Shown here: in pieces, positions 19,473 through 34,927 of the stretch
How the letters are laid out: each line of letters begins with the position of its first letter
Numbering within the stretch: position 1 is the stretch's first letter
Source: a virus
Taxonomy: Duplodnaviria; Heunggongvirae; Uroviricota; Caudoviricetes
DNA: 64,000 bases
Virus record (IMG/VR): IMGVR_UViG_3300027796_000011
Span: 41,850-105,849 of that record
Strand: one strand, 5' to 3'
Notes under the pieces: model-generated
Databases searched by the model: none
What the model was told of the DNA's origin: nothing
Seen by the model: only the letters and a program-made list of their open reading frames with translations
Position numbers and translations under genes: made by a program

Positions 19473-19865
19473 TTAATTGTCTGCGTCGGTAAACGAAAAT
19501 GGCAGGCCACAAACCGTCTGGCCCGCACGAAACCCGGCATACAATCCAAGCGCCTGTAGCTGTTCCCGGATATGCCTCCCGATCAAGTCCGGGCGTTCTC
19601 GGCGTATCTGTGCGCCTACCTCGTCAAAAAATATCTTGCGCCCCTGGCCGTCATAGTAATAACCGCCCATTTTTTCCTCGCTTTTTTTAGGGTTGCGTTT
19701 CAAGCCGGGAACTGTTCCCGGCTTGTTTGCAATCCTTTGTCGGCTACTCTCGCCGGGCCTGTCCCGGCTAAGCTCTGGCCTGTCAATTTTCAGTGATCTT
19801 TGCGGGCCGCTTCCCCGCACGTCGTGATTATTTTCTAATCGCATTCTGGCCTTCCCGTCAAGCAT
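19473..19865 (-). CDS. hypothetical basic protein
   Basis: 130 aa ORF. Confidence 0.25.
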   Translation of the reverse strand: MLDGKARMRLENNHDVRGSGPQRSLKIDRPELSRDRPGESSRQRIANKPGTVPGLKRNPKKSEEKMGGYYYDGQGRKIFFDEVGAQIRRERPDLIGRHIREQLQALGLYAGFRAGQTVCGLPFSFTDADN

Positions 19866-19869
19866 TTTT

Positions 19870-20470
19870 TCTATCTTTTTTTGGCCCGCTCAAAAAATTG
19901 AAATCAATTTCAAAAAATGCCGTATGTAATGATCCGGGCGCGCGAAGAGCATTTTTCATGCCAAAAAATCTTGAAAAAGGCCATTTTTCCTTGTATTGCG
20001 CTAAAAATCTAAAAACGTATCCTTGCCTAGCAAAACATGCCCGGCGCGGCAAATCGCATTCTGGCGTGTTTCAGCCCTATATGCTTCGCATAGCATAACG
20101 AAAAAAACTGGAAAAAAGCTCGATAAAAAGATTTTTTTGGCATGGTTTTTGTCGTGGCATGAAATATGCTTGGCGTTTTTTCCTGCCAGATTTTTTTGCT
20201 TTTTTTTGCTTTTTTTCGCATTTTCTTGTGCTTTTCCTGGTTTTTGGCATGGAACGTGAATTGACAAAACTTTGACTATACTACCACGGCTTTTCTCGCA
20301 TATACTCTCGACATGACAAAAAAATGGCGCAGATTGCTTGCCTTATGCTTTCTTGGGCATATGCTTTCGCGGACATATGCTTGACCACGCCGATATGCTT
20401 TCTTGAACATATGCTAGCTCGGACATATGCTTTTTCTAACCTATGCTTTGTGGAGCATAACGCTGGCGGT
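19870..20470. other. candidate replication origin: AT-rich tract plus iterons
   Basis: poly-T tracts at 20150-20250; six spaced (A)CATATGCT iterons at 20338-20462; an outward-facing promoter TTGACAAAACTTTGACTATACT at 20261. Confidence 0.45.
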
Positions 20471-20572
20471 AGTCTGGTCTGGCGGGGCGGCGGCTAAGTT
20501 CCAGGTGGGGCAGCCTGCTTACCTGTTAGGTATTCTGTCTTAAATCCTTCCCCAAAAAATGCTACGTTGCAA

Positions 20573-20652
20573 GTTGCCGGTCCCCCCTACGTTGCGGGTT
20601 GCCGGTCCCTTTTCATTTCTTGACCTACGTTGCTTGTTGTCGTTCCCTTGGG
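20573..20652. repeat. three tandem CTACGTTGCnnGTTGCCGGTCCC direct repeats
   Basis: read directly; a second triple copy lies at 31490-31558. Confidence 0.8.
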
Positions 20653-20867
20653 TGCTTCCTGCCCGCTTCCTTGAGGTAGTGCTGATTGTTGTCAGGATGC
20701 CCTGTGCTGGACTTTCTTTTGATTCTTGGGGTTGGATACGGTCTGCTTGGTAGGCTGGCTTTAGAATGGCTTGTCTTTGGCTGGTTTTGAGTGTTCTTTG
20801 GCTGTTCGGGGTGGGTTCTTTTAGCCTAGTTCTGGTTGCTTTCCCACCCCGATTTTTTGGACTTCTG

Positions 20868-21101
20868 CTAGGCGTCGATGATCGTAAAAATATCCTCAAT
20901 CGGATCGCCTTCCATGTCAATGTCGGCACGACAATGCCTGCGGTTGCCCTCCCGCTCCATTGCTTTGAAAATCTCAAAATCCTCCCACGGAAGTACGCCT
21001 CCCCCAGAATCAGACATGGCATTGGGGGCTAACACGCTCCAAACGTCTTCAAACTGTTCACCTGAGTATCTGTCAACCCACTCCATTTGATATTTCGGCA
21101 T
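20868..21101 (-). CDS. small acidic protein, three-member paralog family (member 1)
   Basis: WVDRYSGEQFEDVW...LPWEDFEIFKAMEREG. Confidence 0.4.
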   Translation of the reverse strand: MPKYQMEWVDRYSGEQFEDVWSVLAPNAMSDSGGGVLPWEDFEIFKAMEREGNRRHCRADIDMEGDPIEDIFTIIDA

Positions 21102-21130
21102 GTGTTTCCTCCCCGATTTTTTGGGTTAGG

Positions 21131-21334
21131 CTAGTCTTTCAGAATGGTGTAAACATCCCCCTCGCACTCCCACTCTAAGAGGCCCTGAGACTTCATTTTT
21201 TCAAAAATCGCCACATCTCCTCCATGCATCGCGTGTTCATCCTCGCTGCATAACGTGTTAGGGGTAAGGTGGTCCCACAATCCCTCACAACGTCGGCCAG
21301 TAAAAACATCCATCCAACTGATCTTGTATAGCAT
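21131..21334 (-). CDS. small acidic protein, paralog family member 2
   Basis: WMDVFTGRRCEGLW...DVAIFEKMKSQG. Confidence 0.4.
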   Translation of the reverse strand: MLYKISWMDVFTGRRCEGLWDHLTPNTLCSEDEHAMHGGDVAIFEKMKSQGLLEWECEGDVYTILKD

Positions 21335-21363
21335 TTAGGATACCTCCCCGATTTTTGGTATGT

Positions 21364-21621
21364 TTAGATGTCCGATGGATCAGGCAGCGGAGGCTTCTGT
21401 GACACGATGTGGTTATGGTACAAAGCCCACCACTCTGCTAGCACGTTCTCGTGGGCCTTTGGCAGCCAGTCTCCCCCACAAGTAAAAACAGAAACGGCAA
21501 TAGCCGCAAACACCGCTTTCGGACACTGCTCGTAAAAAGATATCTGCCGACTGTACTCGTTTGTCACCTTCCCGGCCATAACCCCCCTTATTAAGCAGAA
21601 ATTTCGTATGTGTCTTCCCAC
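21364..21621 (-). CDS. hypothetical protein
   Basis: 85 aa ORF. Confidence 0.3.
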   Translation of the reverse strand: MGRHIRNFCLIRGVMAGKVTNEYSRQISFYEQCPKAVFAAIAVSVFTCGGDWLPKAHENVLAEWWALYHNHIVSQKPPLPDPSDI

Positions 21622-21851
21622 GCATCCCCGAAGTCACCCACCCCCCGCACAATCCGGGTACTCTCCCCCCGACGTTCCATGTCTTTGAACACCTTGAAGG
21701 CGTCAAACCCCATTATACAGTCGCTCTTCAAGTCCCTGGCCTCAATATCTAAGGTAGTCCACTTCAAGGTGTAGATATTCGTCCCCGGAGTTGCCATGTA
21801 CGTGTATGTGTAGAGCATACCCCCCCTTTGTTTTTTTGAAGTTGATTTCAA
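21591..21851 (-). CDS. small acidic protein, paralog family member 3
   Basis: GFDAFKVFKDMERRG. Confidence 0.35.
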   Translation of the reverse strand: MKSTSKKQRGGMLYTYTYMATPGTNIYTLKWTTLDIEARDLKSDCIMGFDAFKVFKDMERRGESTRIVRGVGDFGDAWEDTYEISA

Positions 21852-22087
21852 TCCCAGGCGTACTTGATGAAAAAAGTCTTACCCGGTTCGATGTTCTTTG
21901 TCAAGCCCATGTTTTCCATTTCTTGGAAAGTATCCGCTTCCGCCTTGGTCATGATAACACTCTTGTACATACCCTTCCGAAAATAGATAGGTACAGACAG
22001 GTATCCCTGCTTTGCCTCGTTCCAAGTGATCTCAAGGGCCTTGCCATCCCCCATACCTTCGCTGGCGTACTGTATCTTGTAGGTCAT
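21848..22087 (-). CDS. hypothetical protein
   Basis: starts MTYKIQY directly after the conserved leader and promoter at 22142. Confidence 0.4.
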   Translation of the reverse strand: MTYKIQYASEGMGDGKALEITWNEAKQGYLSVPIYFRKGMYKSVIMTKAEADTFQEMENMGLTKNIEPGKTFFIKYAWD

Positions 22088-22123
22088 GTGCTTTCCCTCC
22101 CGCTCGTTTGTTGAGTACAGACT

Positions 22124-22297
22124 ACCGCTTTCGGGCAGGTTTGTCAAGGTTTTTTATGACCAGTTTGGCCGCTTGCAGACGCTTCTCGTCTTCCTTGGTA
22201 TTCAACCACGGGCACATGTTCAACGCCTTGACCATATTCTTGAGTGCCCAAGCGGGCTGGTTCCCCACTATGCTTCTCGCTTCCTGTAATGTCATGA
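22124..22297 (-). CDS. hypothetical small protein (57 aa, absent from the ORF track)
   Basis: GGGAGGG RBS then ATG ACA TTA CAG...; [21 protein letters not shown]... Confidence 0.3.
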
Positions 22298-22298
22298 C

Positions 22299-22518
22299 CT
22301 AACCCTCCCGCCTCTTGTAACAAGGGCAATTCTCGTGCGGGGTTTCCGCTTCTACCATCACACCGTCAGCATGTGCCCCGGTGGGCGGAAGCGGGATGGT
22401 GTCCAGGTAAAAACATCGCCCCATAAAATGGTCATCCTCCGGGTATCCGTTGTGTGTCTCCCAGATCGTATTCCAGTTGCAATACTTACAGGTATGACAA
22501 GTCCCTTCCTTGAGTTGC
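22299..22518 (-). CDS. small Cys-rich protein
   Basis: conserved leader then MQLKEGTCHTCKYC. Confidence 0.35.
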
Positions 22519-22593
22519 ATAGGCTCCCCCTCATTCATTGAAGACATTATGTGCTTTTTCTTGGAAAATGTCAAGAGGTTAATCTGGTAAAAT

Positions 22594-23184
22594 CTAGTAA
22601 GTGTCTTCCCTATCAAATTCTTCCAGCCCCGCCCGGAATGCCTCCCACTTGAAGTCCACAAAGGCATCCCGTAGCCGCTCGATATGGCATTGCATAAGCC
22701 GCTCGAAGTCATCCAACTGCTTCGCACAACGCTGCAATGCCTCTTTCTCTATGAACTTGCCTAAACTCGCGTGGAAGTGTTCAAGGACCGGGATAAAGTC
22801 AATCTCCTGCCCGTCAAATGTGAAAGCGATCCGCTTGTCAAGGCACCCATCACCATGTACCTCCACCCCGGGAGCCTTTTCCAAAGCAAGGTAAAACAAC
22901 GACTTGACGAGGGTCAAGGAGCTGTCTGTGTGTAGTTCTCGGATAGTCGTTTCTTTTTTCATGTGCATACCCCCGGCATACTCCCGATTTTTTGCTTCGG
23001 CGTATGTCATAGCCTTGTCAAAATAATTCTGACGCTTGGCACCTATCCTGCCGATCTTGCGAACCGTTCGGCTCCTGTCGTTGAACACGCACCAGTAATC
23101 CCCTATGCTGCCCACCCGGCACGGGCCTGTGGTGGTTGGCGAATGGACGGCACCGCAGTAGTGATTTTCGTAAGTGTCTGACAT
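22594..23184 (-). CDS. hypothetical protein
   Basis: GGGGGGTAGGAACC ATG; 196 aa. Confidence 0.4.
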   Translation of the reverse strand: MSDTYENHYCGAVHSPTTTGPCRVGSIGDYWCVFNDRSRTVRKIGRIGAKRQNYFDKAMTYAEAKNREYAGGMHMKKETTIRELHTDSSLTLVKSLFYLALEKAPGVEVHGDGCLDKRIAFTFDGQEIDFIPVLEHFHASLGKFIEKEALQRCAKQLDDFERLMQCHIERLRDAFVDFKWEAFRAGLEEFDREDTY

Positions 23185-23211
23185 GGTTCCTACCCCCCTC
23201 ATTTGTTTTGT

Positions 23212-23370
23212 CTATCTGTCCACAACGCCATTCACGTACTGGCGGGATGCCTTCAAAGACTTCGCAAGGACAGCCCCAAGTTCAGGGTGCTTGCGGACTG
23301 CCTGCCACCCATCACTGTCAACTAACTGGCGAATTTGTGCGGCCTGCTTTCTGGAAATAATGGCATTCAT
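23212..23370 (-). CDS. small hypothetical protein
   Basis: conserved leader then MNAIISRKQ. Confidence 0.35.
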   Translation of the reverse strand: MNAIISRKQAAQIRQLVDSDGWQAVRKHPELGAVLAKSLKASRQYVNGVVDR

Positions 23371-23443
23371 GTTCCTACCCCCCTCATTTGTTAGAAACAG
23401 TATGTGATTTTTCTTGGAAAATGTCAAGCGTATTTTTAATTTG

Positions 23444-23692
23444 CTATTTAATCCCTTCGCGGATTCGGTTGGCACACCACAACACACGATCAGGATGTAG
23501 CCCGCAACAATCTGAGCTAAGTTCTGGATTTACCACCATATCGTCAGCCACATCGGCAGCACCGGGAAGGACTCGCCCAAGTAGATGTAGATACCCGATT
23601 GCATTTGCCACCCTGTCCCCCCCATAAGCCGGGTGGCGTCCCTCGAAGATCGCTGCGGATTCTCTCAAGATGTCAACGGTAGTGCTGTTCAT
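23444..23692 (-). CDS. hypothetical protein
   Basis: 82 aa after the conserved leader. Confidence 0.35.
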   Translation of the reverse strand: MNSTTVDILRESAAIFEGRHPAYGGDRVANAIGYLHLLGRVLPGAADVADDMVVNPELSSDCCGLHPDRVLWCANRIREGIK

Positions 23693-23778
23693 GACTCCCC
23701 CTCATTCGTTGAAGACATTATGTGCTTTTTCTTGGAAAATGTCAAGCGTTATTTTTAACTTGCAACTTGATCCCCCCA

Positions 23779-24063
23779 TTACTTCCATGCGGCATACTTT
23801 GCCAGGAAGTCTAGACGTTCCTGTTCCTGCGTCAAGGCGTCTGTGAGTGGGATCAGGGACTCTTCTACCCGCGCAGCCCTCTCCCGGTCAAGAAAAAAAC
23901 CTACCGTCTGATCCGCATAGTCTGACCGCACATCGGTCACGCTTGTATAAGTGTACTGGCAATGCGGGCAGTAATCCCACCCCGCACCCTGGCCCCGGAG
24001 GTGCGAACAAAACTCACAAGCCGAAGACGCGCTTGAGATGGCAACTCTTTCCATTCTTTCCAT
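23779..24063 (-). CDS. hypothetical Cys-rich protein
   Basis: 94 aa; CEFCSH...CPHC. Confidence 0.35.
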   Translation of the reverse strand: MERMERVAISSASSACEFCSHLRGQGAGWDYCPHCQYTYTSVTDVRSDYADQTVGFFLDRERAARVEESLIPLTDALTQEQERLDFLAKYAAWK

Positions 24064-24142
24064 GTTCCTACCCCCCTCATTTGTTAGAAACAGTATAGAC
24101 CAAGAATCCCAGAAATGTCAAGTAGTTTTTTCGCAGTCAAAT

Positions 24143-24607
24143 TCAATTATTGACCCGGATCATGCGGTATTGCGGGTTGGTAGTCGTCTCCGTTCCAAAT
24201 TCCAGATACAGATGACGCTTACCCTTGCGATAGATGACCAAGTACACCGAATCCGAATACAGACCAAGTTCCTTGTGCTTGGCGGTCATCTTGGCCCCGC
24301 TGTACCATTCCACCCGCACCTCGTCCCCCTCCCGCAAAAGGGACAGGATAGACTCCGCATGATATGCCGTGCTGTACAAAGCCGTGTAATAACATCCGCT
24401 CAAGTCCTTTGCCCTGGCCGAATAGTTTGAAAAATACGCCTTTGTCTCAAAAGCGTAGGTGTACTCCCCGTTCTCCCGCACGATGTGAAACTCCCACTTG
24501 CAAGTACCCGCCCCTGGCTCAGACCGTAAAACCAGGGACTTGCTCAGATACTTTTCAGCCTTGAGGACGTACTTGATAGCCTTGATGTCTTCCTTGGTAA
24601 GTTCCAT
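24143..24607 (-). CDS. hypothetical protein
   Basis: 154 aa ORF with leader. Confidence 0.4.
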   Translation of the reverse strand: MELTKEDIKAIKYVLKAEKYLSKSLVLRSEPGAGTCKWEFHIVRENGEYTYAFETKAYFSNYSARAKDLSGCYYTALYSTAYHAESILSLLREGDEVRVEWYSGAKMTAKHKELGLYSDSVYLVIYRKGKRHLYLEFGTETTTNPQYRMIRVNN

Positions 24608-24955
24608 AGTGTTTCCCTCCCGATTTTTTAATAAAGGGCATCCAAAGGAAGAACGATCTCATTTCCTACGCAACGCTCATTTTCTGCCGCTTCCTTGGAT
24701 GGAAAAACCCGGATTCGATTCAATACTCTTGTATAAGAGTTTTTGCTTCCAGGCTTGGCAACGTATCCACCTTCGCCACCTGTCCTTTTCAAAATGAATC
24801 CATTTGATTGCATGTGTGTTTCCCTCCCCGATTTGTTGAGTAGAGTATGCGCTAAAAACCTGGAAATGTCAAGAGGTTTTTTGAAGTTAATGGCGAAAAA
24901 AAAGCGGGAAGGCTTGCACCTTCCCGCACTAACTATTCAGGATTCTTTGAGATGT

Positions 24956-25897
24956 TTAGATTTCAATCAGCCGGATCAGTTCCGCCTTGTCCGGGGTTGT
25001 GATCGTCACGACAAGGCCGCTCGTGTGCCGGTATTCAGTGTCCCCGTAGGCGTCCTCCCCACTTTCCAGGTTCAGCCACCCCAGAGTCACCGTGGCCTTG
25101 TCACCCAAAGCCTTGCGGGCCTCCCGCAACTTCTCAATTTCGGCCAGTTCGGGCTTGTCGCGCTCGTTCCATCCCGCAGCCTCCCCCTCCCGGATTCCGG
25201 CGGGAAGTTTGGCGTCCGCCAGCACATTCACGACGTATTCCTGACGGGCCAGGGCCTTCCAATCAAAGCCCTCTTCAAGTCTGGCAAGCAGCAACTCCGA
25301 TCCATGCGCCTTGGCCCACTTCTCCAAAGCCGCCTCACCTTCTGCCGCTTCCTGCCGCTTGCGGGCCTCGTACTCGTCCCGGCTCTTTTCCATGTCCTGC
25401 CGCTTCCGCAACTGTTCGGCTAACTCCGCTTCACGCTTGGCTTTCTTGGCCTCTCCCGCCTCTACCAGTTGCGCTTTGATGCTGTCAAACTCTTCCTCAA
25501 CCCACCGATAGCGGGCCTTCTCAAACTCCAAGGCGGCGGAAAAACTCTCAAAAGGTGCGTCAAACCCCTCTTTCATGACATAAGAGGCAAGGGATGGGTC
25601 GTCCTTATCATGTCCAATTATGCCGATGATCGGGGAGCCGTGCTTGACAATGTACAGGCTGTCGGTGCTGATGGTCTGAGTGCCCTCCCGCTCCCGGCGG
25701 ATGGACACCCCACCCCCCACAACCTGAGTCTGCAAAAGGGCCAGGGTCAGGCTGCCGTCCCGGTCAACCTTAAAAAAGTCAACGTCTTCCGGGGAAATCT
25801 CGCCGGTCAAGGTCTGCATGGCCTTGCCGTCCAGCCCGCGCTTCAAAGCCTCACGCTGCCCAGCCTCAGTCAGCTTGTAAGTGATCGTCGCCTTCAT
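24956..25897 (-). CDS. hypothetical coiled-coil protein
   Basis: GGGAGGGAACGAAAA ATG; central E/K/R-rich helix. Confidence 0.4.
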   Translation of the reverse strand: MKATITYKLTEAGQREALKRGLDGKAMQTLTGEISPEDVDFFKVDRDGSLTLALLQTQVVGGGVSIRREREGTQTISTDSLYIVKHGSPIIGIIGHDKDDPSLASYVMKEGFDAPFESFSAALEFEKARYRWVEEEFDSIKAQLVEAGEAKKAKREAELAEQLRKRQDMEKSRDEYEARKRQEAAEGEAALEKWAKAHGSELLLARLEEGFDWKALARQEYVVNVLADAKLPAGIREGEAAGWNERDKPELAEIEKLREARKALGDKATVTLGWLNLESGEDAYGDTEYRHTSGLVVTITTPDKAELIRLIEI

Positions 25898-26037
25898 TTT
25901 TCGTTCCCTCCCGCCCGGCCCCTGCCGGGGTTGTTGTTTCATGTCCCGCGCCATCCCCAGACGGGGCGGTGTTCCCCATTCCGTTGAGTAGGAGTCTACT
26001 CAATCCTTCCAGGTTTGTCAAGCGTTTTCTTGTTTTT

Positions 26038-26137
26038 TGGTGGAGGCAGCCGGACTCGAACCGGCATCTACCGGCCCCTTACAGGGGTGCCCGCGTCCGG
26101 GCGTCCATTGTCGTTCTACCGATTAAACTATGCCCCC
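26038..26137 (-). ncRNA. tRNA-like element with non-canonical anticodon region
   Basis: 7-bp acceptor stem GGGGGCA/TGCCTCC; D arm TAGTTTAATCGGTAGAAC; perfect T arm GCCGGTTCGAGTCCGGC; 3' ACCA; the 46-nt middle forms GCCCG-GACG-CGGGC and CCCCT-GTA-AGGGG hairpins but no 5-bp/7-nt anticodon arm. Confidence 0.5.
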
Positions 26138-26181
26138 ATGAAGTAGAAGAATACTCAATCCTTCCAGGTTTGTCAAGAGAT

Positions 26182-26457
26182 TTAATAATAAACCCCTAAA
26201 GCCCGGCACGCCAGGAAAGAAAAATCTGTGTTGTGCCCGATGTGCTTGACGGCCATAGCCTGTAACAAGGCACCCTCAATCGTAGTGCATCCGCAGTTCG
26301 TGTCCCGCCCCTCCACATACGGGTGAAATATCCGGTGGTCCTCCTTGTCAAGATGCTCCACGATGCTGTACGGCCCGACCTCGTGGACTTCCACCACAAC
26401 CCCCCACACAAAGTCTATCGTATTACCGTAAATCTGTGTCGGTCTACGCACTTTCAT
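26182..26457 (-). CDS. hypothetical protein
   Basis: 91 aa ORF downstream of the promoter at 26172. Confidence 0.3.
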   Translation of the reverse strand: MKVRRPTQIYGNTIDFVWGVVVEVHEVGPYSIVEHLDKEDHRIFHPYVEGRDTNCGCTTIEGALLQAMAVKHIGHNTDFSFLACRALGVYY

Positions 26458-26692
26458 ACTCCTTCACCATATCCACCGCTTGTTGAAGAAGACTCATGCC
26501 TTCTGGGGTGGGGGAGTCCACGCATAAATCCTCAGCCACAGCAATAACCTTTTTCAAGAGTACACGAAGTTTCTCAAAGTCCTCCCACTCCACATAGGTG
26601 CCATCGGCGTCAAGTTCCATGTCACAGCCGGGGCAGTCGTCGTCACTGAGCCACAACGCACTGGACTCAAGAGAGTACCGTTTTATGCTCAT
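26444..26692 (-). CDS. hypothetical acidic protein
   Basis: 82 aa ORF. Confidence 0.3.
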   Translation of the reverse strand: MSIKRYSLESSALWLSDDDCPGCDMELDADGTYVEWEDFEKLRVLLKKVIAVAEDLCVDSPTPEGMSLLQQAVDMVKEYESA

Positions 26693-26994
26693 GTAGCCAA
26701 CCCCTTTTTGAAGTGCTTTCTCACTGCGGCCTTGTATTCCGACGGCAACGGCATAACCGTTATAAGCACCTGCGCCAGACTGTAAATGTACACCATTTCC
26801 CCGTAAATCTTGATGTCTTTGGGCTTGGAGTGGTGCGCGGAAAACAGCGCATCGAAATACTTTTCAAGCCTCCCCGTTGCGTGTCTCCTTCCCATGCCCT
26901 TACTGTAGGCGATTGTTGCAGTCCTGTCAAGGGCTTTCTTTGGGAGTCCAACCCTCTCTTTTAAGCGTCTCGCTGCATGGTATGTGGTATGCAT
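26689..26994 (-). CDS. hypothetical protein
   Basis: 101 aa ORF. Confidence 0.3.
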   Translation of the reverse strand: MHTTYHAARRLKERVGLPKKALDRTATIAYSKGMGRRHATGRLEKYFDALFSAHHSKPKDIKIYGEMVYIYSLAQVLITVMPLPSEYKAAVRKHFKKGLAT

Positions 26995-27003
26995 GGCCTC
27001 CCC

Positions 27004-27615
27004 CTACATCCTGGCGAAGACTGCAACGTCTCCGTTATAAGTGCGTTCGGACCAATAGCTGTCAATAAACAGGTCACGGGCGTATGCGTCATAGTCGAAA
27101 TACGCTTGCAGATGTTCGGGGATGGAATCCAATTCCCCCATTTCGTCAAGCAGTTGCTCCGCAAATGCTGTTTCAGAATCAAAAGTGCCCTGGAAAGCAT
27201 CCTGAAAATCATCCAGGGTTGCATCCCCACCGTTGTCGTTTGCGTAAATGGCGTAAGCCTCCCCACCCTCTTCCAGAAGCCCATCCAGCTCGACAATCCT
27301 GTCCAGCGGGGTGTACTCCTCGACCAGCCCGTAAAATCCCTCTGAGTCATGAATGGCCCACTCCTCCGCAGACGGGAACGGGGAGGGCAAAGCACCGCCA
27401 CAATCCGGGCACCGCTCCCATTTGGCGTCCACATAAACGTCGCAGTCCTTGCAACGTCTACGCATGACATTGGGGTACTTGCTCATGGCAAGCAAGGCGT
27501 TAATCTGCGACTGAAGGCTTTCCGCACTCTCCCCGTCAACGTCGATCCATGTGCCCCGCGCTTCCCCGTTGTTGTAGTCGGCCAGGATGGACACATAGAT
27601 TTTTCTGTCGCTCAT
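27004..27615 (-). CDS. ardA: ArdA-family anti-restriction protein with inserted zinc ribbon
   Basis: IYVSILADYNNGEARGTWIDV, EWAIHDSEGFYG, IPEHLQAYFDYDAYARDLF align with Tn916 ArdA (VYIANLGKYNEGELVGAWF...EYAIHDYE...LQNYIDYQAYGRDL); highly acidic; CKDCD...CPDCGG insertion. Confidence 0.75.
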   Translation of the reverse strand: MSDRKIYVSILADYNNGEARGTWIDVDGESAESLQSQINALLAMSKYPNVMRRRCKDCDVYVDAKWERCPDCGGALPSPFPSAEEWAIHDSEGFYGLVEEYTPLDRIVELDGLLEEGGEAYAIYANDNGGDATLDDFQDAFQGTFDSETAFAEQLLDEMGELDSIPEHLQAYFDYDAYARDLFIDSYWSERTYNGDVAVFARM

Positions 27616-27703
27616 TTCGTTACCCTCCCGCTTGATTTGTTGAAGTCAGTATGTGCTATTTTCCAGGTTTTGTCAAGCACTTTTCCCATTGACTTCACTA
27701 TTT

Positions 27704-28015
27704 TCAGGAAGGCGACCAACCGTGCAGACAAAAGACCCTGAGAAGCGGGTTAACCCGCTGCAAAGTGCTGCGAATGTCGTTCGTTTTACTGTACCCGGAA
27801 CCCCCCAGACGGAAATGAAAAGCCGGATATTGGCTATGCTTACTGTAAATCTGATCGGGCAGCATTTCCTTAGACTTTTTGCCAAGGTCCGAATCCGACG
27901 GCCAGAGGATATTCAACCCCTCACCCTCGTCCAGGTACACGGCAAAGCGCGTGTTAGAAAGTTGAAGGATGTAAGCCCGCTTTGCGTCCTGAATTTGTTC
28001 CGCTTGTGCCTTCAT
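27704..28015 (-). CDS. hypothetical protein
   Basis: conserved leader then MKAQAEQIQ. Confidence 0.4.
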   Translation of the reverse strand: MKAQAEQIQDAKRAYILQLSNTRFAVYLDEGEGLNILWPSDSDLGKKSKEMLPDQIYSKHSQYPAFHFRLGGSGYSKTNDIRSTLQRVNPLLRVFCLHGWSPS

Positions 28016-28042
28016 GTGTGTTCCCTCCCGATTTGTTGAAGT

Positions 28043-28071
28043 CAGTATGTTCTTTTTCTGGGAAAATGTCA
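28043..28071 (-). promoter_or_regulatory. representative copy of the conserved promoter and leader cassette
   Basis: minus strand reads TTGACATTTTCCCAGAAAAAGAACATACT then GACTTCAACAAATCGGGAGGGAACACAC ATG; -35 hexamers of similar copies lie near 22142, 22569, 23422, 23740, 24116, 24866, 26016, 26172, 27671, 28836, 29387, 30577, 31066, 31313, 33046, 34317, 35268, 38878, 47155, 49124, 50692, 61099 and 62363. Confidence 0.6.
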
Positions 28072-28092
28072 AGCGGTTTTTCACATTGACTT

Positions 28093-28128
28093 CAAAAAAA
28101 CGGGGGGCTTTTACACCCCCCGCACATG
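28093..28128 (-). terminator. rho-independent terminator
   Basis: GCGGGGGGTGTAAAAGCCCCCCG hairpin + T7 on the minus strand. Confidence 0.5.
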
Positions 28129-28130
28129 TC

Positions 28131-28784
28131 TTAAATGTGGCAGTCAACCAGGGCCACAAGCTCATGCCCCTTGATCTCCTCCCAAAGCACCCGGAATTGG
28201 TCTTCCCACTCGCAAGGGCGTTTCTCCTCAGACACGCAAGCCCACCAGCCCATTTTGCCGCGCTCGTACCACACGCCGTCTTTCAGCACGGCAAACGTGG
28301 TTTCAACATCCCCGGCCTGATCCTTCCGGCAAATGTCCTTGCCGTCAAACATACCGCGCCACCGCCCGCCGATCTCCCACCAATCCCATTTGGCGTCGGG
28401 ATTCTCCCAATAGCCGTAGCGGCCCTTCTCCAGGTCGCGCCCATCGTATCCATACCAACCTTTGGCAAACTCCTCCAAAGTTTCGTACTGGTCCAGGTGC
28501 GGCACCTTAACCCTCTCGCTGTCTGCCGGGTACTCCTGGCGGGAAGACAGGTCTTTCTTGAAACGATCATCCCACCGATAGAACATACGCCCATCTTTGA
28601 GACGCACTTTCTCCACAGAGCCTTGCTGATACTCCGCGATGACGGACTCTTCCTTGTCGTGGAACTCTAAAAGTTCCTTCGGGAAGTCATCCTCCCCGCT
28701 GTACTCCTCAAACGGAGCCAGGGCCTTGGCGATGGACTCTTTTGTGCCGTCCTCAGTGACAACCAATACCGTAAAGTGTGACAT
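28131..28784 (-). CDS. hypothetical Trp-rich protein (WDWWEIGGRW motif)
   Basis: conserved leader then MSHFTVLVV; 217 aa. Confidence 0.4.
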   Translation of the reverse strand: MSHFTVLVVTEDGTKESIAKALAPFEEYSGEDDFPKELLEFHDKEESVIAEYQQGSVEKVRLKDGRMFYRWDDRFKKDLSSRQEYPADSERVKVPHLDQYETLEEFAKGWYGYDGRDLEKGRYGYWENPDAKWDWWEIGGRWRGMFDGKDICRKDQAGDVETTFAVLKDGVWYERGKMGWWACVSEEKRPCEWEDQFRVLWEEIKGHELVALVDCHI

Positions 28785-29087
28785 GTGTGTTCCCTCCCGA
28801 TTTGTTGAAGTCAGTATGTTCTTTTTCTGGGAAAATGTCAAGCACTATTTTGAAGTTAGTGTGAGAATTTCTGTCAGGGTCGCATGGATGGAGAACAGAC
28901 GTTCTTCCAAGCCCTCCCGCTCCGGGGCGGGGAGGCAACCCACTACCGCCCGGATATCCGCCAAATGACTTCTCATCTGGCAAGCGGATGACATGAGGGC
29001 CGAAAGCGTCTGAGCGTCCATGTCATTTTCCCGCCTCAATTCCTTTCAGAATGAGCCACCCTACGCATATTGCCCATAACACGAGGA

Positions 29088-29330
29088 CTACCATGCGCGG
29101 GCCTCCCGGTCACTGTCCTGCGGCAAATCCACCCCCATCAAAACATGATGGGAAGGAACGTCATGGGACACCTTGTAGTGCCTGCCGTACACGGGCCAGA
29201 AGCCGTAGTCGTCACAAAACTCCCGGCAATACTCCGGCAGGGACGCCTGGATTTCCTCCAGGCTGTCATACTGCATCAAAGTGGACCAGCTACCATCCGC
29301 CCGCTTTTCCTGAAAGCTGTATTCGTACAT
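29088..29330 (-). CDS. hypothetical protein
   Basis: conserved leader then MYEYSFQEK. Confidence 0.35.
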   Translation of the reverse strand: MYEYSFQEKRADGSWSTLMQYDSLEEIQASLPEYCREFCDDYGFWPVYGRHYKVSHDVPSHHVLMGVDLPQDSDREARAW

Positions 29331-29388
29331 GGTTCTTTTCCTCCCGCTCATTTGTTAGGTGCATCCTACCCGGTTTTTCCAGGTTTTG

Positions 29389-29742
29389 TCAAGAGGTTTT
29401 ATCCCCTAAATTAGACAAAACTTCGCGCAGTTGGGCAAAAGCCACTTTGCACAGGTCAAAGTGCGTCCCTAGGGACGCAAATGCGTGTTCGATGTACCAC
29501 GTATCGGAGCAGTCCGCACAAACCACATGCAGCGTTTCATACAATTCCCGGCACTGTGCATACCATGCCGCTGCCGCAGCCACACGACGAAGGCGGGCGA
29601 TCTCCAGGGAGGCATCCCCGTTGGTATCAATAGCCCCCCGAAGCCACTCACGTAATTCATGAACTTCCGCATTTTTGACATCCAAAGCCGTCCGAAGAAA
29701 CTCAACCTCCTGACCACAGCCGCACGACTCGCACATTGACAT
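29389..29742 (-). CDS. hypothetical Cys-rich protein
   Basis: MSMCESCGCG...; 117 aa. Confidence 0.3.
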   Translation of the reverse strand: MSMCESCGCGQEVEFLRTALDVKNAEVHELREWLRGAIDTNGDASLEIARLRRVAAAAAWYAQCRELYETLHVVCADCSDTWYIEHAFASLGTHFDLCKVAFAQLREVLSNLGDKTS

Positions 29743-29761
29743 GGTAGCCCCCACTGGTCGG

Positions 29762-30247
29762 TTAGTTCTTGATTTTCGGGACGGCCTTCACCTTCGCATA
29801 CAGGTCAGTTTCTTCCGCAACCAGCCCGGACTTCGAGACGATGGCCTTCGACAGAAAAGCCTCTGTCGCAGTCAGGCCGACCTTTACCAATTTGAAAAAG
29901 TCCTGCTCCCGATCCCGTTCCTTGAGCCACTGAAAGAAGCGTAGCGGGTCAATGTCCCTGGACTTTTTGCCTTCCCACACCAGCATGGAGGCTTCACCCT
30001 CAAGGCTGGTCGTCTCCAGGTCTTCTGCCACCCCGGCCAACTCTTCCTTCAAAGCCTTTTCCTCTGCTTTCGCAGCGGCCAGGGATTCCTTGAAAGCCTT
30101 TTCCTTGAGGTCGATTTCAGTCATCAAAGTCGCCAGCCGGTCAACCTTTTCGGCCAATTCGTTGCGCTGTTTGGGGATGGTAACAGACAGCCCCTTGATA
30201 GCAGACACCGTAGACGATTCGCGGATAAGTCTCATTCCAGTTTCCAT
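29762..30247 (-). CDS. coiled-coil protein (possibly Gp157-like)
   Basis: 161 aa, central KEKAFKESLAAAKAEEKALKEELAG coiled coil. Confidence 0.3.
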   Translation of the reverse strand: METGMRLIRESSTVSAIKGLSVTIPKQRNELAEKVDRLATLMTEIDLKEKAFKESLAAAKAEEKALKEELAGVAEDLETTSLEGEASMLVWEGKKSRDIDPLRFFQWLKERDREQDFFKLVKVGLTATEAFLSKAIVSKSGLVAEETDLYAKVKAVPKIKN

Positions 30248-30273
30248 AGCTCCCTCGTGTTCTTGTCTACACG

Positions 30274-30525
30274 TTAGGCAATGATTTCAGACACCCATTC
30301 AGGAATCCAACCCCACACCCCATCATCCTCAAGAATATCAAAATAGTCATGCCGCACAACATACGATACAGTAACAACAGTTCCCAGATAAGCAAACATG
30401 TCAGGGACGATGCTGTCCACCCACATGGGGTTGCACAGGGCACCCGCAAAATCAATCCCTGTGGACGCACTTGCCAACTCTTCCAGCGTCTTCAGACGCA
30501 CTTTCATCCCAGGCTTAATTTCCAT
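30274..30525 (-). CDS. N-domain-only member of the HRDIRLIR family
   Basis: MEIKPGMKVRLKTLEEL, YLGTVVTVS, WGWIPEWV; lacks the C-terminal HRD motif. Confidence 0.45.
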   Translation of the reverse strand: MEIKPGMKVRLKTLEELASASTGIDFAGALCNPMWVDSIVPDMFAYLGTVVTVSYVVRHDYFDILEDDGVWGWIPEWVSEIIA

Positions 30526-30601
30526 CGCTCCTCCCGCTCAATTTGTTGAGTAGATTATGGACGTTTTTCCAGGTTTTGTCAAGAGGTTTTTCCCATTGAC
30601 T

Positions 30602-30817
30602 TCAAAAAATAATGTCAGGGTGTAAACGGTAGACCTGTTTCCCAAGAAACACCCGCACATCCTGCGGGCTGGCCTTGCCCAAGAATTGCGCCAGCTTTTG
30701 CCGGGATGCCTTCCCGCCCGGCCTGACTTGAAAGTACCGCTGCGGGAGGGTCTTAGCCTCACCCCGGATGGTTAATTCCTCGTCCGTTTCCATATTGATG
30801 AAATTGATATTGGTCAT
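30602..30817 (-). CDS. hypothetical protein
   Basis: 72 aa starting MTNINFINME. Confidence 0.3.
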   Translation of the reverse strand: MTNINFINMETDEELTIRGEAKTLPQRYFQVRPGGKASRQKLAQFLGKASPQDVRVFLGKQVYRLHPDIIF

Positions 30818-31442
30818 TTTAGTCGTCCCCTCCAAGCAAGTCTAGACGCTCTTCAAGCGTGCGAATATAGCACGCCAAGTCTTCCCTGTCCATTTCAAGT
30901 TCTTCTATCCGGGCTTCCAGCTTGGCTATTTCGGAGTCTTTGAGGTCAAGCTCTACAGCAACGTCTTCCCAAAGCACCCACTCCCCATGCTTGTCAGCCT
31001 TCATCGTGTATCTGTCCATATGCCCCCCGATTTGTTGAGTAGAGTATGTGCTTTTTCTGGGAAAATGTCAAGCACTATTTTTCCAGTAATTTACCGCGCA
31101 ATCCTCCAAGTTCGCTAGGTACTCACTGTGCCTGTCGGCTGCGGCGTCACTCCAACCATCCCGCCATGCCACACGGTCCACGCTATCAATAGTATAAGGG
31201 CTAGCAGACTCTTCCCGTCCCTCCAGAAAGGCACTGTACCCCAGGTCGTATGCTTCCATGTGGTCCCTCCCGCTCATTTGTTAGGTGCATCCTACCCGAA
31301 AAATCTAGGGTTTGTCAAGAGGTTTTTTGAAGTCAATGGGAAAAAGCGGGGCGGGTGGGAAAACAGCCGAAGCCCCCAAAGCATCCTATAAGACACTATG
31401 AGGGCTTCTGGCTCAACTACCCGGCTATCTACCCGGCTTACT

Positions 31443-31558
31443 TCATGGGTCACTTAGGGGGTCACTTAGGGGGTCACTTGATGGGTCTACGTTGTAAGTC
31501 GTCGGTCCCCTACGTTGAACCTTGCCGTTCCCTACGTTGCAACCCGCCGTTCCCTCGA
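31443..31558. repeat. intergenic repeat cluster: 3x GGTCACTTAGGG followed by 3x CTACGTTGnAAnnnGnCGnTCCC
   Basis: read directly; same repeat family as 20573-20652. Confidence 0.8.
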
Positions 31559-32431
31559 CTACTTTGTTATGTCTCCCAGGCTCACCATCGGAGTAACATC
31601 CCCAGAGATTTTGGGGAGGATACCATCCCACTTCTCAACAGTCTTGTAGCGCACCAGTTCGGGAGTGAGAGACTTCGCCAGAATGAGGTTAGCCTCTGCC
31701 TGTGCCTTCGCCTTCAACGTGATGCTTTCGGCCTCTCCACGGGCCTTCTCAACACTCTTAGCTGCCTCCGCAGCAGCCTCCCGGCGTTCATTCTCACGCT
31801 GTTCAGCACGCTGCGTAGCCTCAATCTTAGCGTTGATACTGGCAATAACTTTTTCGGGGAGCCGGAAGTCCCCCACAAGATAAATGCGGTCAATCAGGAT
31901 GCCAATCGGGAGACATTGCTCACGAACCATATTCTCAACATCAGCCATCAATTTGGCCTTACCTTGCCCATACACATTAGCCACGGGCTGTGTTGACGAC
32001 AACGCCACCAAAGCATCCCGCACCATGTTACGGAGGTAGATGTCCGTGATCTCGTTCACACCCTTACGGTACTTCTGGAACAAGATATCAACCATTTCAG
32101 GCTTCACAGAAAAAGAGATTCCAAAATCACCGTTGACAGACAGCCCCTCGGATGTCTGAAAAGTGATGGATTCATCTTCAGGGCTTCCTTCCCGCTTATC
32201 AGCAGTCCAGACATAGTTCTGCGTAAAAACAGGGAACAAAAACAGATCGGTGTTCCACCCCAAGAAGTAGTATCCCGTGCCAACCTCTTCAGCGTCCACA
32301 CCCTTGTCACCACCAAGCAGATAGACCTTGACACCCTTGTAGCCAGCAGGGACTTTGGCGCAACCAAAACAACCCCCCGTGAAGGGCACCGACAGTAGCA
32401 GCAGAACAACCAGCAAGCGACTAATTTTCAC
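31559..32431 (-). CDS. SPFH/band-7 (stomatin/HflKC-like) lipoprotein
   Basis: signal peptide with lipobox FTGGC; SPFH domain; C-terminal A/E/K-rich coiled coil typical of band-7 proteins. Confidence 0.65.
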   Translation of the reverse strand: MKISRLLVVLLLLSVPFTGGCFGCAKVPAGYKGVKVYLLGGDKGVDAEEVGTGYYFLGWNTDLFLFPVFTQNYVWTADKREGSPEDESITFQTSEGLSVNGDFGISFSVKPEMVDILFQKYRKGVNEITDIYLRNMVRDALVALSSTQPVANVYGQGKAKLMADVENMVREQCLPIGILIDRIYLVGDFRLPEKVIASINAKIEATQRAEQRENERREAAAEAAKSVEKARGEAESITLKAKAQAEANLILAKSLTPELVRYKTVEKWDGILPKISGDVTPMVSLGDITK

Positions 32432-34260: not shown

Positions 34261-34927
34261 CTGGAATCCTCCCCGCTCGATTTGTTACAAACATCTTACC
34301 CAATTTTTCTAGGCATTGTCAAGAGGAATTTCGCAGTCAACTTCAAAATTTTCGGGGTCGGTTAACTCTTCCCGCAGAAGTTCTCTCACTTTAGTCCTTT
34401 CTGCCTGATGGTACATCTGCCGATCCTTCCCGCTCTTGGGGCCGCAACACCGGCACTTCCATCTGTACCAACTCATGGCGTCCAGCCCCAAACGCTTATC
34501 AACCTTATCCGTCTTCGCAGACGACTGCATACTGCCCCCCCCTAGTTAGTCAGGAAGAGGGAGGCAAACTCCTCCCAGAACTCATCCTCTTCCAGTTCGT
34601 ACCTACGTTGCTTCTTGCCGTTCCCATGTACCTTCGTCAGATACCTGGAGTCCTTGGGCATTGCATCCCGCCGTGCTTCTCTGTAAGCCCTGCGGGTTGC
34701 CTCCCCCACATCAATCTTCTGGCACTTCATATCGCTCCCCCTCCAACTCGTTACGGTATCTCTCAATACACCCATCTAGAGTGGTATCCCCATGCTTCTT
34801 CCAATACTCATACAAAAGCAAGTTCAACTCTTTTGACATCTTCTCAACTGCGTCAGGAAAAGTTGCACGGCTTCGGATACGCATTACAAGCCTCAAACAC
34901 TTATGCAAAAACAAGTCAACATCTGGA

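Follow-up and report, generated by a model that had tools for sequence, protein, structure and literature searches.

The window analyzed here is a 64,000-nucleotide stretch from a novel, previously undescribed siphovirus, the genome of which assembles as a circle of ~105.8 kb. Within the early-gene region of this phage, we found seven copies of a bipartite 23-base motif, CTACGTTG-N8-CGKTCCC, a pattern common to all copies. They lie on one strand at three loci (81 kb of the ~105.8-kb genome was examined), namely a cluster at locus 1, a second cluster at locus 2, and a solitary copy (Table 1). We tentatively propose that these are iteron-like sites for a predicted phage protein, with locus 1 forming part of a replication origin and the others serving as auxiliary sites, by analogy to oriL and oriR of SPP1. 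The motif is new, but docking sites of this sort are commonplace.

Scored with a weight matrix derived from the copies, the seven sites reached 33 to 37 bits, while all other positions on both strands reached 14 bits or less and the maximum in shuffled sequence was 16 bits. When up to two mismatches to the degenerate pattern were allowed, nine matches were observed against an expectation of 0.17, and seven of the nine were perfect. The 23-bp repeats reported at two loci in the preliminary description are thus real and far beyond chance, and it was also correct that both clusters are intergenic and that the neighboring ORFs are spurious, since these lack ribosome-binding sites (RBS) or run antisense to real genes. 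Several details required revision. The exact ranges were shifted by 3 to 11 bp from the true units. What the two loci share is the bipartite pattern and not one 23-mer, as the exact sequence CTACGTTGCAAGTTGCCGGTCCC occurs only once, at 20562. A head-to-tail arrangement is found at locus 2, where the units start 23 and 22 bp apart, but not at locus 1, where start-to-start distances of 25 and 38 bp leave gaps of 2 and 15 bp. Finally, only two loci had been noted, and the seventh perfect-pattern copy at 34603 to 34625 was overlooked.

All copies agree in 15 of the 23 columns, and variation is confined to columns 9 to 14, 16, and 19. The right box in its extended form reads TTGYCGKTCCC, the transcribed-strand (RNA) form of the unit is GGGAMCG-N8-CAACGUAG, and the sites are asymmetric and nonpalindromic. 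Identity between copies is 96% in the boxes versus 52% in the centers; center (spacer) identity is 56% within a locus versus 47% between loci. Compared over 300 nt, the sequences flanking the two clusters resemble each other no more than shuffled controls do. Because the centers drift alike within and between clusters and the flanks are unrelated, selection on the boxes rather than recent duplication appears to have preserved the motif. Judged by sequence, the copies are individually conserved sites and not parts of a larger duplicated segment, the alternative raised in the preliminary description. The recombination hotspot that it also listed is neither supported nor excluded, although conservation limited to the boxes favors recognition by a protein over plain homology. 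Scans of IMG/VR and GTDB genomes did not turn up the motif, nor did it occur in metagenome loci retrieved around SPFH homologues or in fragments of the two nearest relatives, and no relatives informative for comparative support of the sites were found.

Table 1. Features at and around the 23-bp sites (window coordinates)
Feature	Position	Strand	Details
Low-GC noncoding segment beside the arrays	19870..20340		35-41% GC, A-tract-rich; candidate DNA-unwinding/bent region
Second array, locus 1 only	20344..20449		16-bp unit x6.5, sense strand AAGCATATGTCCGNGN
Unit 1, locus 1	20562..20584	+	CTACGTTGCAAGTTGCCGGTCCC; minus (transcribed) strand GGGACCGGCAACTTGCAACGTAG; 37.3 bits
Unit 2, locus 1	20587..20609	+	25 bp from unit 1; 34.1 bits
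Unit 3, locus 1	20625..20647	+	38 bp from unit 2; 35.0 bits
Noncoding trailer past last early gene	20650..20868	-	Sense RNA C/A-rich, G-poor (rut-like)
77-aa gene, last RBS-supported early gene before locus 1	20868..21101	-	
RMF-like gene, first gene downstream of locus 2	31068..31259	-	Driven by promoter P31318
40-nt hairpin	31369..31408	-	Followed by CUGUUUU on sense strand; z = -3.3
Two CTACCCGGCT copies	31417..31438		12-bp period
12-bp repeat x3.4 adjoining locus 2 units	31447..31487		Consensus GGGTCACTTAAG; TRF
Unit 4, locus 2	31487..31509	+	32.8 bits
Unit 5, locus 2	31510..31532	+	Spacing 23; 33.8 bits
Unit 6, locus 2	31532..31554	+	Spacing 22, one base in common with unit 5; 33.7 bits
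SPFH/Band-7 gene, stop codon adjoining locus 2	31559..32431	-	
Unit 7, solitary	34603..34625	+	Inside 62-aa gene 34542-34730(-); 35.8 bits
Spurious ORFs at the clusters	20540-21022, 20001-20267	-	No RBS or antisense
Spurious ORFs at the clusters	31128-31391, 31355-31996	+	No RBS or antisense

The solitary copy encodes GNGKKQRR, within the least conserved stretch of its 62-aa host protein. In two homologues of this protein (67% and 46% identity), the residues at this place could encode neither box, and the site is therefore a feature imposed on the coding sequence at the DNA level. For the two small proteins at this site, the structure models (pLDDT of 60 and 51) were too poor for use. The invariant boxes around a degenerate center, the common orientation, the 22- to 25-bp spacing, and the retention of a copy in a variable coding loop support the earlier suggestion of sites for a phage DNA-binding protein.

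Locus 2 is placed between the stop codon of the SPFH/Band-7 gene, which behaves as a mobile “moron” rather than a core gene, and a terminator-like hairpin; unit 6 ends 5 bp from the stop codon. The hairpin is the probable terminator of the SPFH operon and lies just upstream of promoter P31318. Of the three GGTCACTTAGGG repeats previously described at this locus, two are exact copies (31448 and 31460), while the third is degenerate. The GC content of locus 2 is 54 to 57%, and it has no AT-rich segment.

Locus 1 is located within a noncoding stretch of ~1 kb after the last early gene. Its low-GC segment has the joint lowest GC content in the window at the 500-bp scale; it is not unique, as the whole block from 15.5 to 20.3 kb is low in GC, and it falls outside the ten least stable 100-bp windows. 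The locus borders this low-GC block, which lacks the usual promoter and RBS style of the phage. The trailer holds an 11-bp repeat in three copies (20774-20807) and a decayed 5′ untranslated region (UTR)/RBS copy without a start codon. Part of locus 1 thus looks like decayed promoter/5′ UTR cassettes, and because of these, part of its noncoding character reflects gene decay.

Many sigma-70-type promoters drive the early genes among which the sites lie. The sites are at operon 3′ ends and not at promoters: either the nearest −35 hexamer is 170 to 280 bp downstream, or they follow the last gene of an operon. Between the two clusters are 10.9 kb of small early genes under strong host-type promoters, ArdA among them, and a gene for a gp5.9-like inhibitor of RecBCD is found just upstream of this block. 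The gene content (RNR, ThyX, dNMP kinase, RecBCD inhibitor, and ArdA) points to a virulent phage. A DnaB helicase and a Toprim primase are also encoded, and the genes for these are preceded by those for two proteins of 419 and 293 aa, in the positions that the origin binder and the helicase loader hold in lambda O-P and SPP1 38-39-40; the putative initiator has no detectable similarity to a known family or solved structure. Among ~120 proteins from the window and its flanks, we found no matches to Rep, HTH, RHH, or ParB families. The 23-bp sites are ~31 to 45 kb from the replication operon. Neither a repeat array nor a motif box was present in the replication genes or their promoter region, and thus the origin must lie elsewhere.

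The sites, their statistics, the selective conservation within them, their placement, and the anatomy of locus 1 are direct observations; from these we infer that a protein binds the sites, that it is phage encoded, and that its role is in replication rather than in another DNA transaction. The seven units would be recognition sites for one sequence-specific DNA-binding protein, probably encoded by the phage, with two fixed contact boxes, CTACGTTG and CGKTCCC, flanking a tolerant center. The reading of each site would thus be asymmetric, through either a monomer with two modules or an asymmetric dimer. Iterons are typically phased by ~22 bp, a value matched by the spacings of 25, 23, and 22 bp seen here. 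Sites every 22 to 25 bp (about two helical turns) have the geometry of replication iterons, and this phasing would align the bound proteins on one face of the DNA and allow cooperative binding. Locus 1, with its three sites, the 16-bp array, and the A-tract low-GC segment, may then be part of an origin at the end of early transcription. Locus 2 and the 34603 site would act as auxiliary loci for the protein bound at locus 1. They could contribute to control by looping or handcuffing or, in the manner of SPP1 oriR, provide a second late-origin or fork-stalling site. Against an origin stand the missing AT-rich segment at locus 2, the absence of DnaA boxes near locus 1 or locus 2, the absence of a GC skew inflection inside the co-oriented gene block, the nonuniqueness of the low-GC segment and the signs of gene decay at locus 1, the lack of a binder among the proteins searched, and the lack of comparative support. 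The 16-bp array could also be the true origin iterons, with the 23-bp sites serving something else.

The strongest alternative, although unlikely, is that the units are regulatory nucleoprotein sites at the ends of early operons. Bound there, a phage protein would form a roadblock or boundary, or it would activate or silence the next promoter from upstream, and so aid the early-to-later switch. All sites fall where sigma-70-type early promoters are most densely packed (35.3-22.1 kb), each is at or near an operon 3′ end (locus 2 before the hairpin and locus 1 after the rut-like trailer), all seven are co-oriented with transcription, and the last locus 1 unit overlaps the −35 element of a degenerate promoter copy, TTGCAA-17-AAGGAT. 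However, the distance to the nearest functional −35 hexamer is 170 to 280 bp and not constant, sites are found near only 3 of the more than 25 promoters in this family, and one site is inside coding sequence. The palindromic element TGAAGT-NN-ACTTCA, placed at many promoters, appears to be a better operator candidate.

It is improbable that the units are packaging or DNA-entry signals, whether as edges of a ~10.9-kb long terminal repeat, a T5-like injection stop at the inner end of an early block that enters first, or terminase (pac) repeats. The bracketed early genes do resemble the T5 pre-early terminal repeat (10.1 kb) or the SPO1 host-takeover module, locus 1 recalls the T5 iss as an untranslated, repeat-dense region at the distal end of an early block, and the circular assembly is compatible with collapsed terminal repeats. 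Yet strong early promoters and the seventh site reach past locus 2 to 35.3 kb, and therefore the clusters do not delimit the early block. Furthermore, DnaA boxes and large inverted repeats like those of the T5 iss are absent, and no T5-group phage is among the relatives of TerL or the early metallophosphatase. Whereas a pac or cos site is a single locus, usually beside terS/terL, the units here are at three loci, 7 to 21 kb from the terminase operon, which weakens the earlier suggestion of pac sites. The record of the closest examined GenBank TerL relative begins at gene 1, the terminase operon, and suggests a circularly permuted genome with no sign of fixed long terminal repeats. An independent assembly is also uninterrupted across the points where other contigs end.

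An RNA-level element, in which the units of early transcripts (3′ UTRs and one coding region) would bind an RNA-binding protein or small RNA for processing, stability, or as a decoy, is even less probable. All copies are on the transcribed strand of early operons, locus 2 precedes the operon terminator hairpin, and GGA motifs occur in each unit and in the locus 1 trailer, but a common orientation has a chance of ~1 in 4 when three independent loci are counted. In addition, inspection of the alignment columns revealed no conserved hairpin and no compensatory changes in the variable center, the folding of locus 1 RNA is no better than that of shuffled sequence (z = +0.18), and the fold signal of locus 2 comes from the terminator hairpin and not from the 23-bp units. 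Least probable of all are parS centromere-like sites, as proposed in the preliminary description, or recombination sites or scars without a protein-specific function: some plasmid and phage-plasmid centromeres, e.g., ParR/parC and omega sites, do consist of clustered direct repeats at several loci, and the clusters here lie at module junctions (the mobile SPFH moron and the low-GC block beside locus 1), but the units are asymmetric, the proteins scanned across 81 kb include no ParA/ParB/ParR-type domain, integrase, or recombinase, neither of the two proteins upstream of TerL is similar to the ParB-like protein that Rhodobacter phage RcZahn has at the equivalent position, the gene content points to a virulent phage, nothing suggests a plasmid or lysogenic lifestyle, and neutral scars would not hold 15 of 23 columns invariant around centers of 52% identity.

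Among known systems, the iteron-like sites proposed here can be compared with iteron origins and control loci of plasmids and phage-plasmids, such as P1 incC/incA, F incB/incC, and P4 ori/crr, in which extra clusters or single sites elsewhere bind the same initiator. Shared features are asymmetric direct repeats of ~17 to 23 bp, ~22-bp phasing, clusters of at least three, and additional clusters or single sites. Unlike in those replicons, neither a Rep-family protein nor DnaA boxes were found in the regions searched, the distance between clusters is greater, and the sites belong to an apparently virulent phage of ~106 kb rather than to a low-copy replicon with a need for handcuffing control. 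Terminase recognition repeats (lambda cosB R1-R3, SPP1 pacL/pacR boxes, and P1 pac hexamers) likewise comprise at least three short repeats to which a small DNA-binding subunit binds cooperatively, a mode of binding that is only proposed here; however, they are single loci in or beside terminase genes, in contrast to three loci 7 to 21 kb downstream of TerL. ParB-parS and ParR-parC also involve clustered repeats, in some cases spread over several loci, on which a higher-order protein-DNA complex is nucleated, as proposed for our sites, but parS is palindromic, and we found no partition genes and nothing plasmid-like in maintenance.

The T5 iss is a 1.66-kb untranslated, repeat-dense region (bioRxiv 10.1101/866236). 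Like locus 1, it is a long region of this type that forms the distal end of a block of small early genes under strong host-type promoters, and each phage has a repeated element at two places within its early block. T5 differs in having paired DnaA boxes in 131-bp inverted repeats, as opposed to direct 23-bp repeats without DnaA boxes, and neither TerL nor the early metallophosphatase has T5-group homology here. [quoted passage not shown] In contrast to SPP1, an AT-rich element is present at locus 1 only, the sites are far from the replication operon whereas oriL lies inside the initiator gene, and the putative initiator, for which binding is only predicted, has no detectable similarity to a known family or solved structure. 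As in SPP1, however, the same direct repeats cluster at two loci ~11 to 13 kb apart in a virulent siphovirus, one set of sites falls within a gene and another is intergenic, and a DnaB-type helicase gene has two genes ahead of it, in the initiator and loader positions.

Direct reading of both loci resolved the repeat into a bipartite unit of 23 bp, composed of an invariant CTACGTTG, eight looser bases and the box CGKTCCC. When we searched the window with this pattern, we found seven perfect matches, all on the plus strand, in two clusters of three and one solitary copy (see the table of features). The preliminary description had listed three head-to-tail copies of one 23-mer in each of the two clusters; the number per locus stands, but the exact 23-mer was found only once and the single copy at 34603 had been left out. 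Likewise, the three copies of GGTCACTTAGGG described for locus 2 proved to be a 12-bp array of 3.4 copies, two of them exact. A weight matrix built from the seven units gave them scores of 33 to 37 bits. No further position on either strand of the window scored above 14 bits, and shuffled sequence, which served as the control, peaked at 16 bits. The search for copies elsewhere that had been proposed, carried out over 81,080 bp of the ~105.8-kb genome (the window plus fetched flanks), yielded no site beyond these seven and no isolated boxes near the replication genes. Since genes from ~16.5 kb to past 64 kb lie on the minus strand nearly without exception, the motif reads GGGAMCG-N8-CAACGTAG on the sense strand.

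Features of the window, with two entries on L174, a metagenome fragment that extends past its right end
Feature	Position (nt)	Strand	Remarks
23-bp units, locus 1	20562, 20587, 20625	+	spacing 25 and 38 bp
23-bp units, locus 2	31487, 31510, 31532	+	spacing 23 and 22 bp
23-bp unit, solitary	34603	+	from the pattern search
Gene-free stretch at locus 1	20868 to about 19866
ORFs overlapping the loci	20540-21022, 20001-20267, 31128-31391, 31355-31996		spurious
Promoter/5'UTR cassettes	22147-35273, 38883, 47160, 49129, 50697, 61104, 62368	-
Promoter/5'UTR cassettes	9992, 11339, 12085, 15335	+
Palindrome TGAAGT-NN-ACTTCA	12050, 28082-28107, 30587-30609, 31323-31348, 34330-34349, 9950-9975, 21830-21852, 19897-19917		examples
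HNH endonuclease gene	1633-2592
45-bp unit in HNH gene	2303-2397		2.1 copies, 98% identity
Adjacent paralogues	11394-13493	+	C-terminal HRDIRLIR(M/L)RVG
RF-1-domain protein	13512-13880	+	122 aa
Low-GC block	~15500-20300		39-43% GC
Second paralogue family	20868-22087	-	67-79 aa
tRNA	26041-26137	-	97 nt; Rfam, 48.6 bits
ArdA gene	27004-27615	-
RMF-like gene	31068-31259	-	63 aa; Pfam RMF, E = 3e-7, above curated cut-off
gp5.9-like gene	37718-37912	-
TerL gene	41830-45180	-	1,116 aa
419-aa and 293-aa proteins	L174:5872-8005
HTH-repressor-like gene	L174:8569-8790		73 aa

The copies (INDEPENDENTLY) are invariant at 15 of 23 columns, the variable ones being 9-14, 16 and 19. Compared pairwise, the copies share 96% of box positions and 52% of centre positions, and the centres diverge inside a cluster (56% identity) as much as across clusters (47%). 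Over 300 nt, the sequences flanking the two clusters resemble each other no better than shuffled controls do. Membership in a larger duplicated segment had been named beforehand as the finding that would speak against an independent element; instead, the flanks are unrelated and the boxes alone have been kept. Judged from the alignment, this is the pattern left by selection on two contact boxes rather than by recent segmental duplication, and the 15 invariant positions are a clean putative recognition code. The seven bipartite sites are real, statistically solid and selectively conserved. They are a new instance of a familiar kind of element, clustered iteron-like repeats that would bind a protein.

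The solitary unit, a further argument for conservation of the sites themselves, lies inside a 62-aa gene, where it encodes GNGKKQRR. This gene is well supported, with a good ribosome-binding site and a gene call in public assemblies, and a search of 1.8 billion representative sequences returned two homologues of its product. Aligned with these, the GNGKKQRR stretch is the least conserved part of the protein, bordered by the conserved blocks DSRYLTKV and EE-EF; the residues of the homologues at this stretch are incompatible with encoding either box. No motif copy was found on L185, a 4.65-kb syntenic metagenome fragment of the relative with the closer homologue of the 62-aa protein. For the two proteins at 34603 (62 and 73 aa), single-sequence AlphaFold models were too uncertain for a fold search.

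The unit is asymmetric, without palindromy. This asymmetry, the conservation pattern, the shared orientation and the 22- to 25-bp phasing together point to one sequence-specific protein, which would dock cooperatively on co-oriented units spaced 22 to 25 bp apart, and we regard the units with good confidence as putative protein-binding sites on DNA. Iterons are at least three asymmetric direct repeats of ~17 to 23 bp at roughly two-turn spacing, a description that both three-site clusters fit. An iteron origin also has an AT-rich unwinding element alongside and a cognate Rep-, O- or gp38-like initiator from the same element, whose gene often adjoins or contains the repeats.

Locus 1 lies in the largest gene-free stretch, which follows the last early operon, extends over ~1 kb without genes supported by a ribosome-binding site and holds four tandem-repeat families. 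In sense-strand order, the last early gene (77 aa) is followed by a C/A-rich and G-poor trailer with an 11-bp repeat in three copies, the three 23-bp units, a GC-rich spacer with a decayed promoter/5'UTR cassette copy, a 16-bp array of 6.5 copies (AAGCATATG...) private to this locus, and a segment filled with A-tracts (35-41% GC). The A-tract segment ties for the lowest GC at the 500-bp scale, falls outside the ten least stable windows of 100 bp and sits inside a generally low-GC block. As had been suspected, the ORFs overlapping both loci are spurious: each is antisense to a real gene or has no ribosome-binding site. Two kinds of direct-repeat array and an A-tract-filled, low-GC segment within the largest gene-free stretch fit iterons, and replication iterons would be the best fit to unit geometry and locus 1 anatomy combined. 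From the point where the two transcription directions converge up to locus 1, a low-GC block contains genes that have neither the promoter cassette nor the GGGAGG ribosome-binding site usual for this phage; the block may have been acquired separately, as a module.

Locus 2 occupies 240 bp between the stop codon of the SPFH/Band-7 gene (31559) and P31318, the promoter that drives the RMF-like gene. On the sense strand, three 23-bp units, beginning 5 bp past the SPFH stop codon, are followed by the 12-bp array, by a 10-bp word present in two copies with a 12-bp period, and by a 40-nt hairpin and CUGUUUU, which together look like the terminator of the SPFH operon. There is no AT-rich segment at locus 2. 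The early gene directly downstream matches ribosome modulation factor, and its product would be a phage-borne ribosome-hibernation factor. An RF-1 (peptidyl-tRNA hydrolase, ArfB-like) domain is annotated by JGI on the same contig in a 122-aa protein, which would be another translation-related phage gene.

A replication operon lies just past the right end of the window and encodes, in an order as in lambda O-P and SPP1 38-39-40, 419-aa and 293-aa proteins, a DnaB helicase, a Toprim primase and an SNF2-type helicase. Neither its genes nor their promoter region contain repeat arrays or motif boxes, so that an origin is needed elsewhere. The reading that we rank first, and hold tentatively, is that the units are iteron-like sites, of which locus 1 would act as part of the origin and locus 2 and the solitary unit as auxiliary sites. 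Alternatively, the private 16-bp array, and not the units, could represent the true origin iterons. The 419-aa and 293-aa proteins had no match in Pfam or PHROGs; among PDB sequences, the former had none and the latter a marginal peroxidase match alone. Their genes immediately precede that of DnaB, and the two proteins make a candidate initiator/loader pair, which would be new. When ~120 proteins, including 60 small early ORFs joined as a polyprotein, were scanned against Pfam and/or PHROGs, no Rep, O, DnaD, HTH, RHH or ParB match was obtained. DnaA boxes beside iterons are common, not universal. Near the loci we found none: the window holds 7 matches to TTWTNCACA (5.3 expected), 0 of them within 3 kb of a locus. 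GC skew has no inflection. These negatives weaken the iteron reading, as do the missing AT-rich segment at locus 2 and the low-GC surroundings of the A-tract segment.

No GenBank phage closely matches the window. One copy of the phage is a contig of 105,969 bp whose ends overlap by 127 bp, and the genome thus assembles as a ~105.8-kb circle. It encodes a tail tube protein, a prohead protease and, just beyond the window, a 2,451-aa tape measure, as well as class II ribonucleotide reductase, ThyX, dNMP kinase, PhoH, RtcB, RNA ligase and C5 methyltransferase. An HNH endonuclease gene, itself containing a tandem repeat, is inserted between the tail-tube and capsid genes. The large terminase (TerL) is split by an ~450-aa intein, as judged from an insertion at residues ~236-685 that is missing from its closest homologue, P0122 (680 aa), and ends in AHN immediately before C. 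In L179, the fragment of a relative that encodes P0122, an intein is present in the neighbouring AAA+ ATPase, not in TerL. Rfam also detected a tRNA between two nearly identical promoters (26176 and 26021); ARAGORN missed it even in intron mode, and it is therefore probably interrupted or atypical. The same phage encodes, besides RtcB and RNA ligase, an RlaP-like nucleotidyltransferase.

A cassette of ~69 nt recurs densely in the block between 35.3 and 22.1 kb, where strong copies number 19 in 13 kb; more occur in other parts of the window. It combines a sigma-70 promoter close to consensus (TTGACA-N17/18-xAxxxT) with a conserved 5'UTR, the ribosome-binding site GGGAGG and ATG. The cassette family has >25 near-identical members sharing the 5'UTR CAACAAATCGGGAGGG, causes assembly breaks in public contigs, and recalls the promoter-early stem-loop cassettes of T4-type phages. 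Genes in the block are small and mostly without assigned function; they include ArdA (from the JGI contig annotation and an anti-restriction PHROG match), and a further early gene specifies a T7 gp5.9-like RecBCD inhibitor. The block is, by prediction, of an early, host-takeover type, and ArdA, the gp5.9-like inhibitor and RMF give a hint of a proteobacterial host. Two paralogue families were also seen: several adjacent genes with a nearly identical C-terminal peptide, and a set of small proteins sharing F..FK.ME..G.

The units sit at the 3' ends of operons and are co-oriented with transcription, which would suit a regulatory or transcription-boundary role, an explanation that we consider unlikely. 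An operator array would have units that overlap or flank regulated promoters, but the closest functional -35 hexamers lie at distances of 169 and 281 bp, units occur anywhere near just three of >25 promoters, and the sole promoter-like overlap with a unit is the degenerate copy at locus 1. What does sit right at many promoters, either in the 5'UTR or immediately before the -35 hexamer, is the palindrome TGAAGT-NN-ACTTCA, flanked by A/T runs, which is the probable operator of a global phage regulator. A similar palindrome is present in L179, and a weak HTH-repressor-like gene lies in a divergent region past the right end of the window. Promoters of a phage RNA polymerase or ECF sigma factor were rejected on inspection: the boxes are unsuitably spaced, the centre between them varies, and even the terminase operon is under host-type promoters.

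Packaging or DNA entry is an improbable role. The two clusters bracket 10.9 kb of early genes, much as the pre-early terminal repeat of T5 spans 10.1 kb, and the injection-stop signal of T5 is likewise housed in untranslated DNA dense in repeats (bioRxiv 10.1101/866236). Locus 1 is such a long region at the inner end of the early block. However, early promoters and the seventh site reach beyond locus 2, and the nearest GenBank TerL relative examined has no sign of fixed long repeats. A T5-like injection stop or long terminal repeat would come with DnaA boxes paired within large inverted repeats, with the pre-early genes A1/A2 and with ~10-kb direct terminal repeats, whereas DnaA boxes and large inverted repeats are missing at our loci, and T5-group homology is undetectable for TerL and the early metallophosphatase. 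A pac or cos site would be a single locus in or by terS-terL; here there are three loci, far from the terminase operon: counted downstream from the TerL stop codon, they lie at 7.2, 10.3 and 21.2 kb. Ends of the assembled contigs, which are k-mer overlaps or repeat-induced breaks, were rejected as termini: two assemblies place the 127-bp overlaps differently, and a third is continuous across them. The literature on terminal-repeat boundary motifs offered nothing usable. It is highly improbable that the co-oriented arrays are polar boundary elements of a first-entering early block, in the manner of a T5-style injection stop, a delimiter or the edge of a terminal repeat. On that account, a new 23-bp motif and its binder would operate in a siphovirus unrelated to T5, and the 10.9-kb interval would be a functional unit, for instance a pre-early segment or terminal repeat; units delimiting such a block would add a second and independent case of staged genome entry in the T5 manner.

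Strand and position would permit the units to act at the RNA level, which is very improbable: they have no special folding that would lend structural support, and Rfam returned nothing at the loci. A parS element or neutral scars deserve scarcely any credence, since partition sites would be palindromic (or boxA/boxB) and ours are asymmetric, the proteins scanned in 81 kb include no partition (ParA/ParB or ParR/ParM type) or recombinase genes, and conservation is selective for the boxes. The ParB- or TerS-like binder that had been proposed did not materialize, the proteins upstream of TerL being without similarity to the ParB-like protein of Rhodobacter phage RcZahn or to PDB sequences. Transposon ends, res sites and recombinase arm sites were discarded because the loci are direct rather than inverted, the units are non-palindromic and the proteins scanned include no recombinase.

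When tandem units were sought by exact pattern, IMG/VR gave three isolated matches, all in unrelated coding DNA upon inspection, and GTDB species genomes also gave three, which, judged by taxon and chance expectation, belong to unrelated taxa and are no more than the pattern would yield by chance. The motif looks private to this lineage. With SPFH as the anchor, the best non-self match was 66% identical; neither the motif, in the 160 loci fetched around SPFH homologues, nor arrays downstream of these genes were found, and synteny is lacking at these loci, SPFH being a mobile moron. Exact-protein look-ups retrieved the phage from three JGI metagenomes and two Logan runs with 100% identical sequence, which leaves no strain variation to exploit. 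L179, whose TerL protein is 52% identical, is syntenic, and its contig ends before the early block. The closest true relatives are fragments that stop short of this block or have no motif copy.

If the units are origin iterons, they offer a handle on replication start in an uncultured ~106-kb siphovirus lineage, namely a defined cis element and a bait for the initiator, which would probably be of an undescribed family because both DnaB neighbours match nothing known. On present evidence, the feature class is ordinary and the phage is novel. P4 ori/crr and the iteron control loci of P1 and F are further examples of a two-locus arrangement of this kind. Its direct precedent is SPP1 (PMC6316719).
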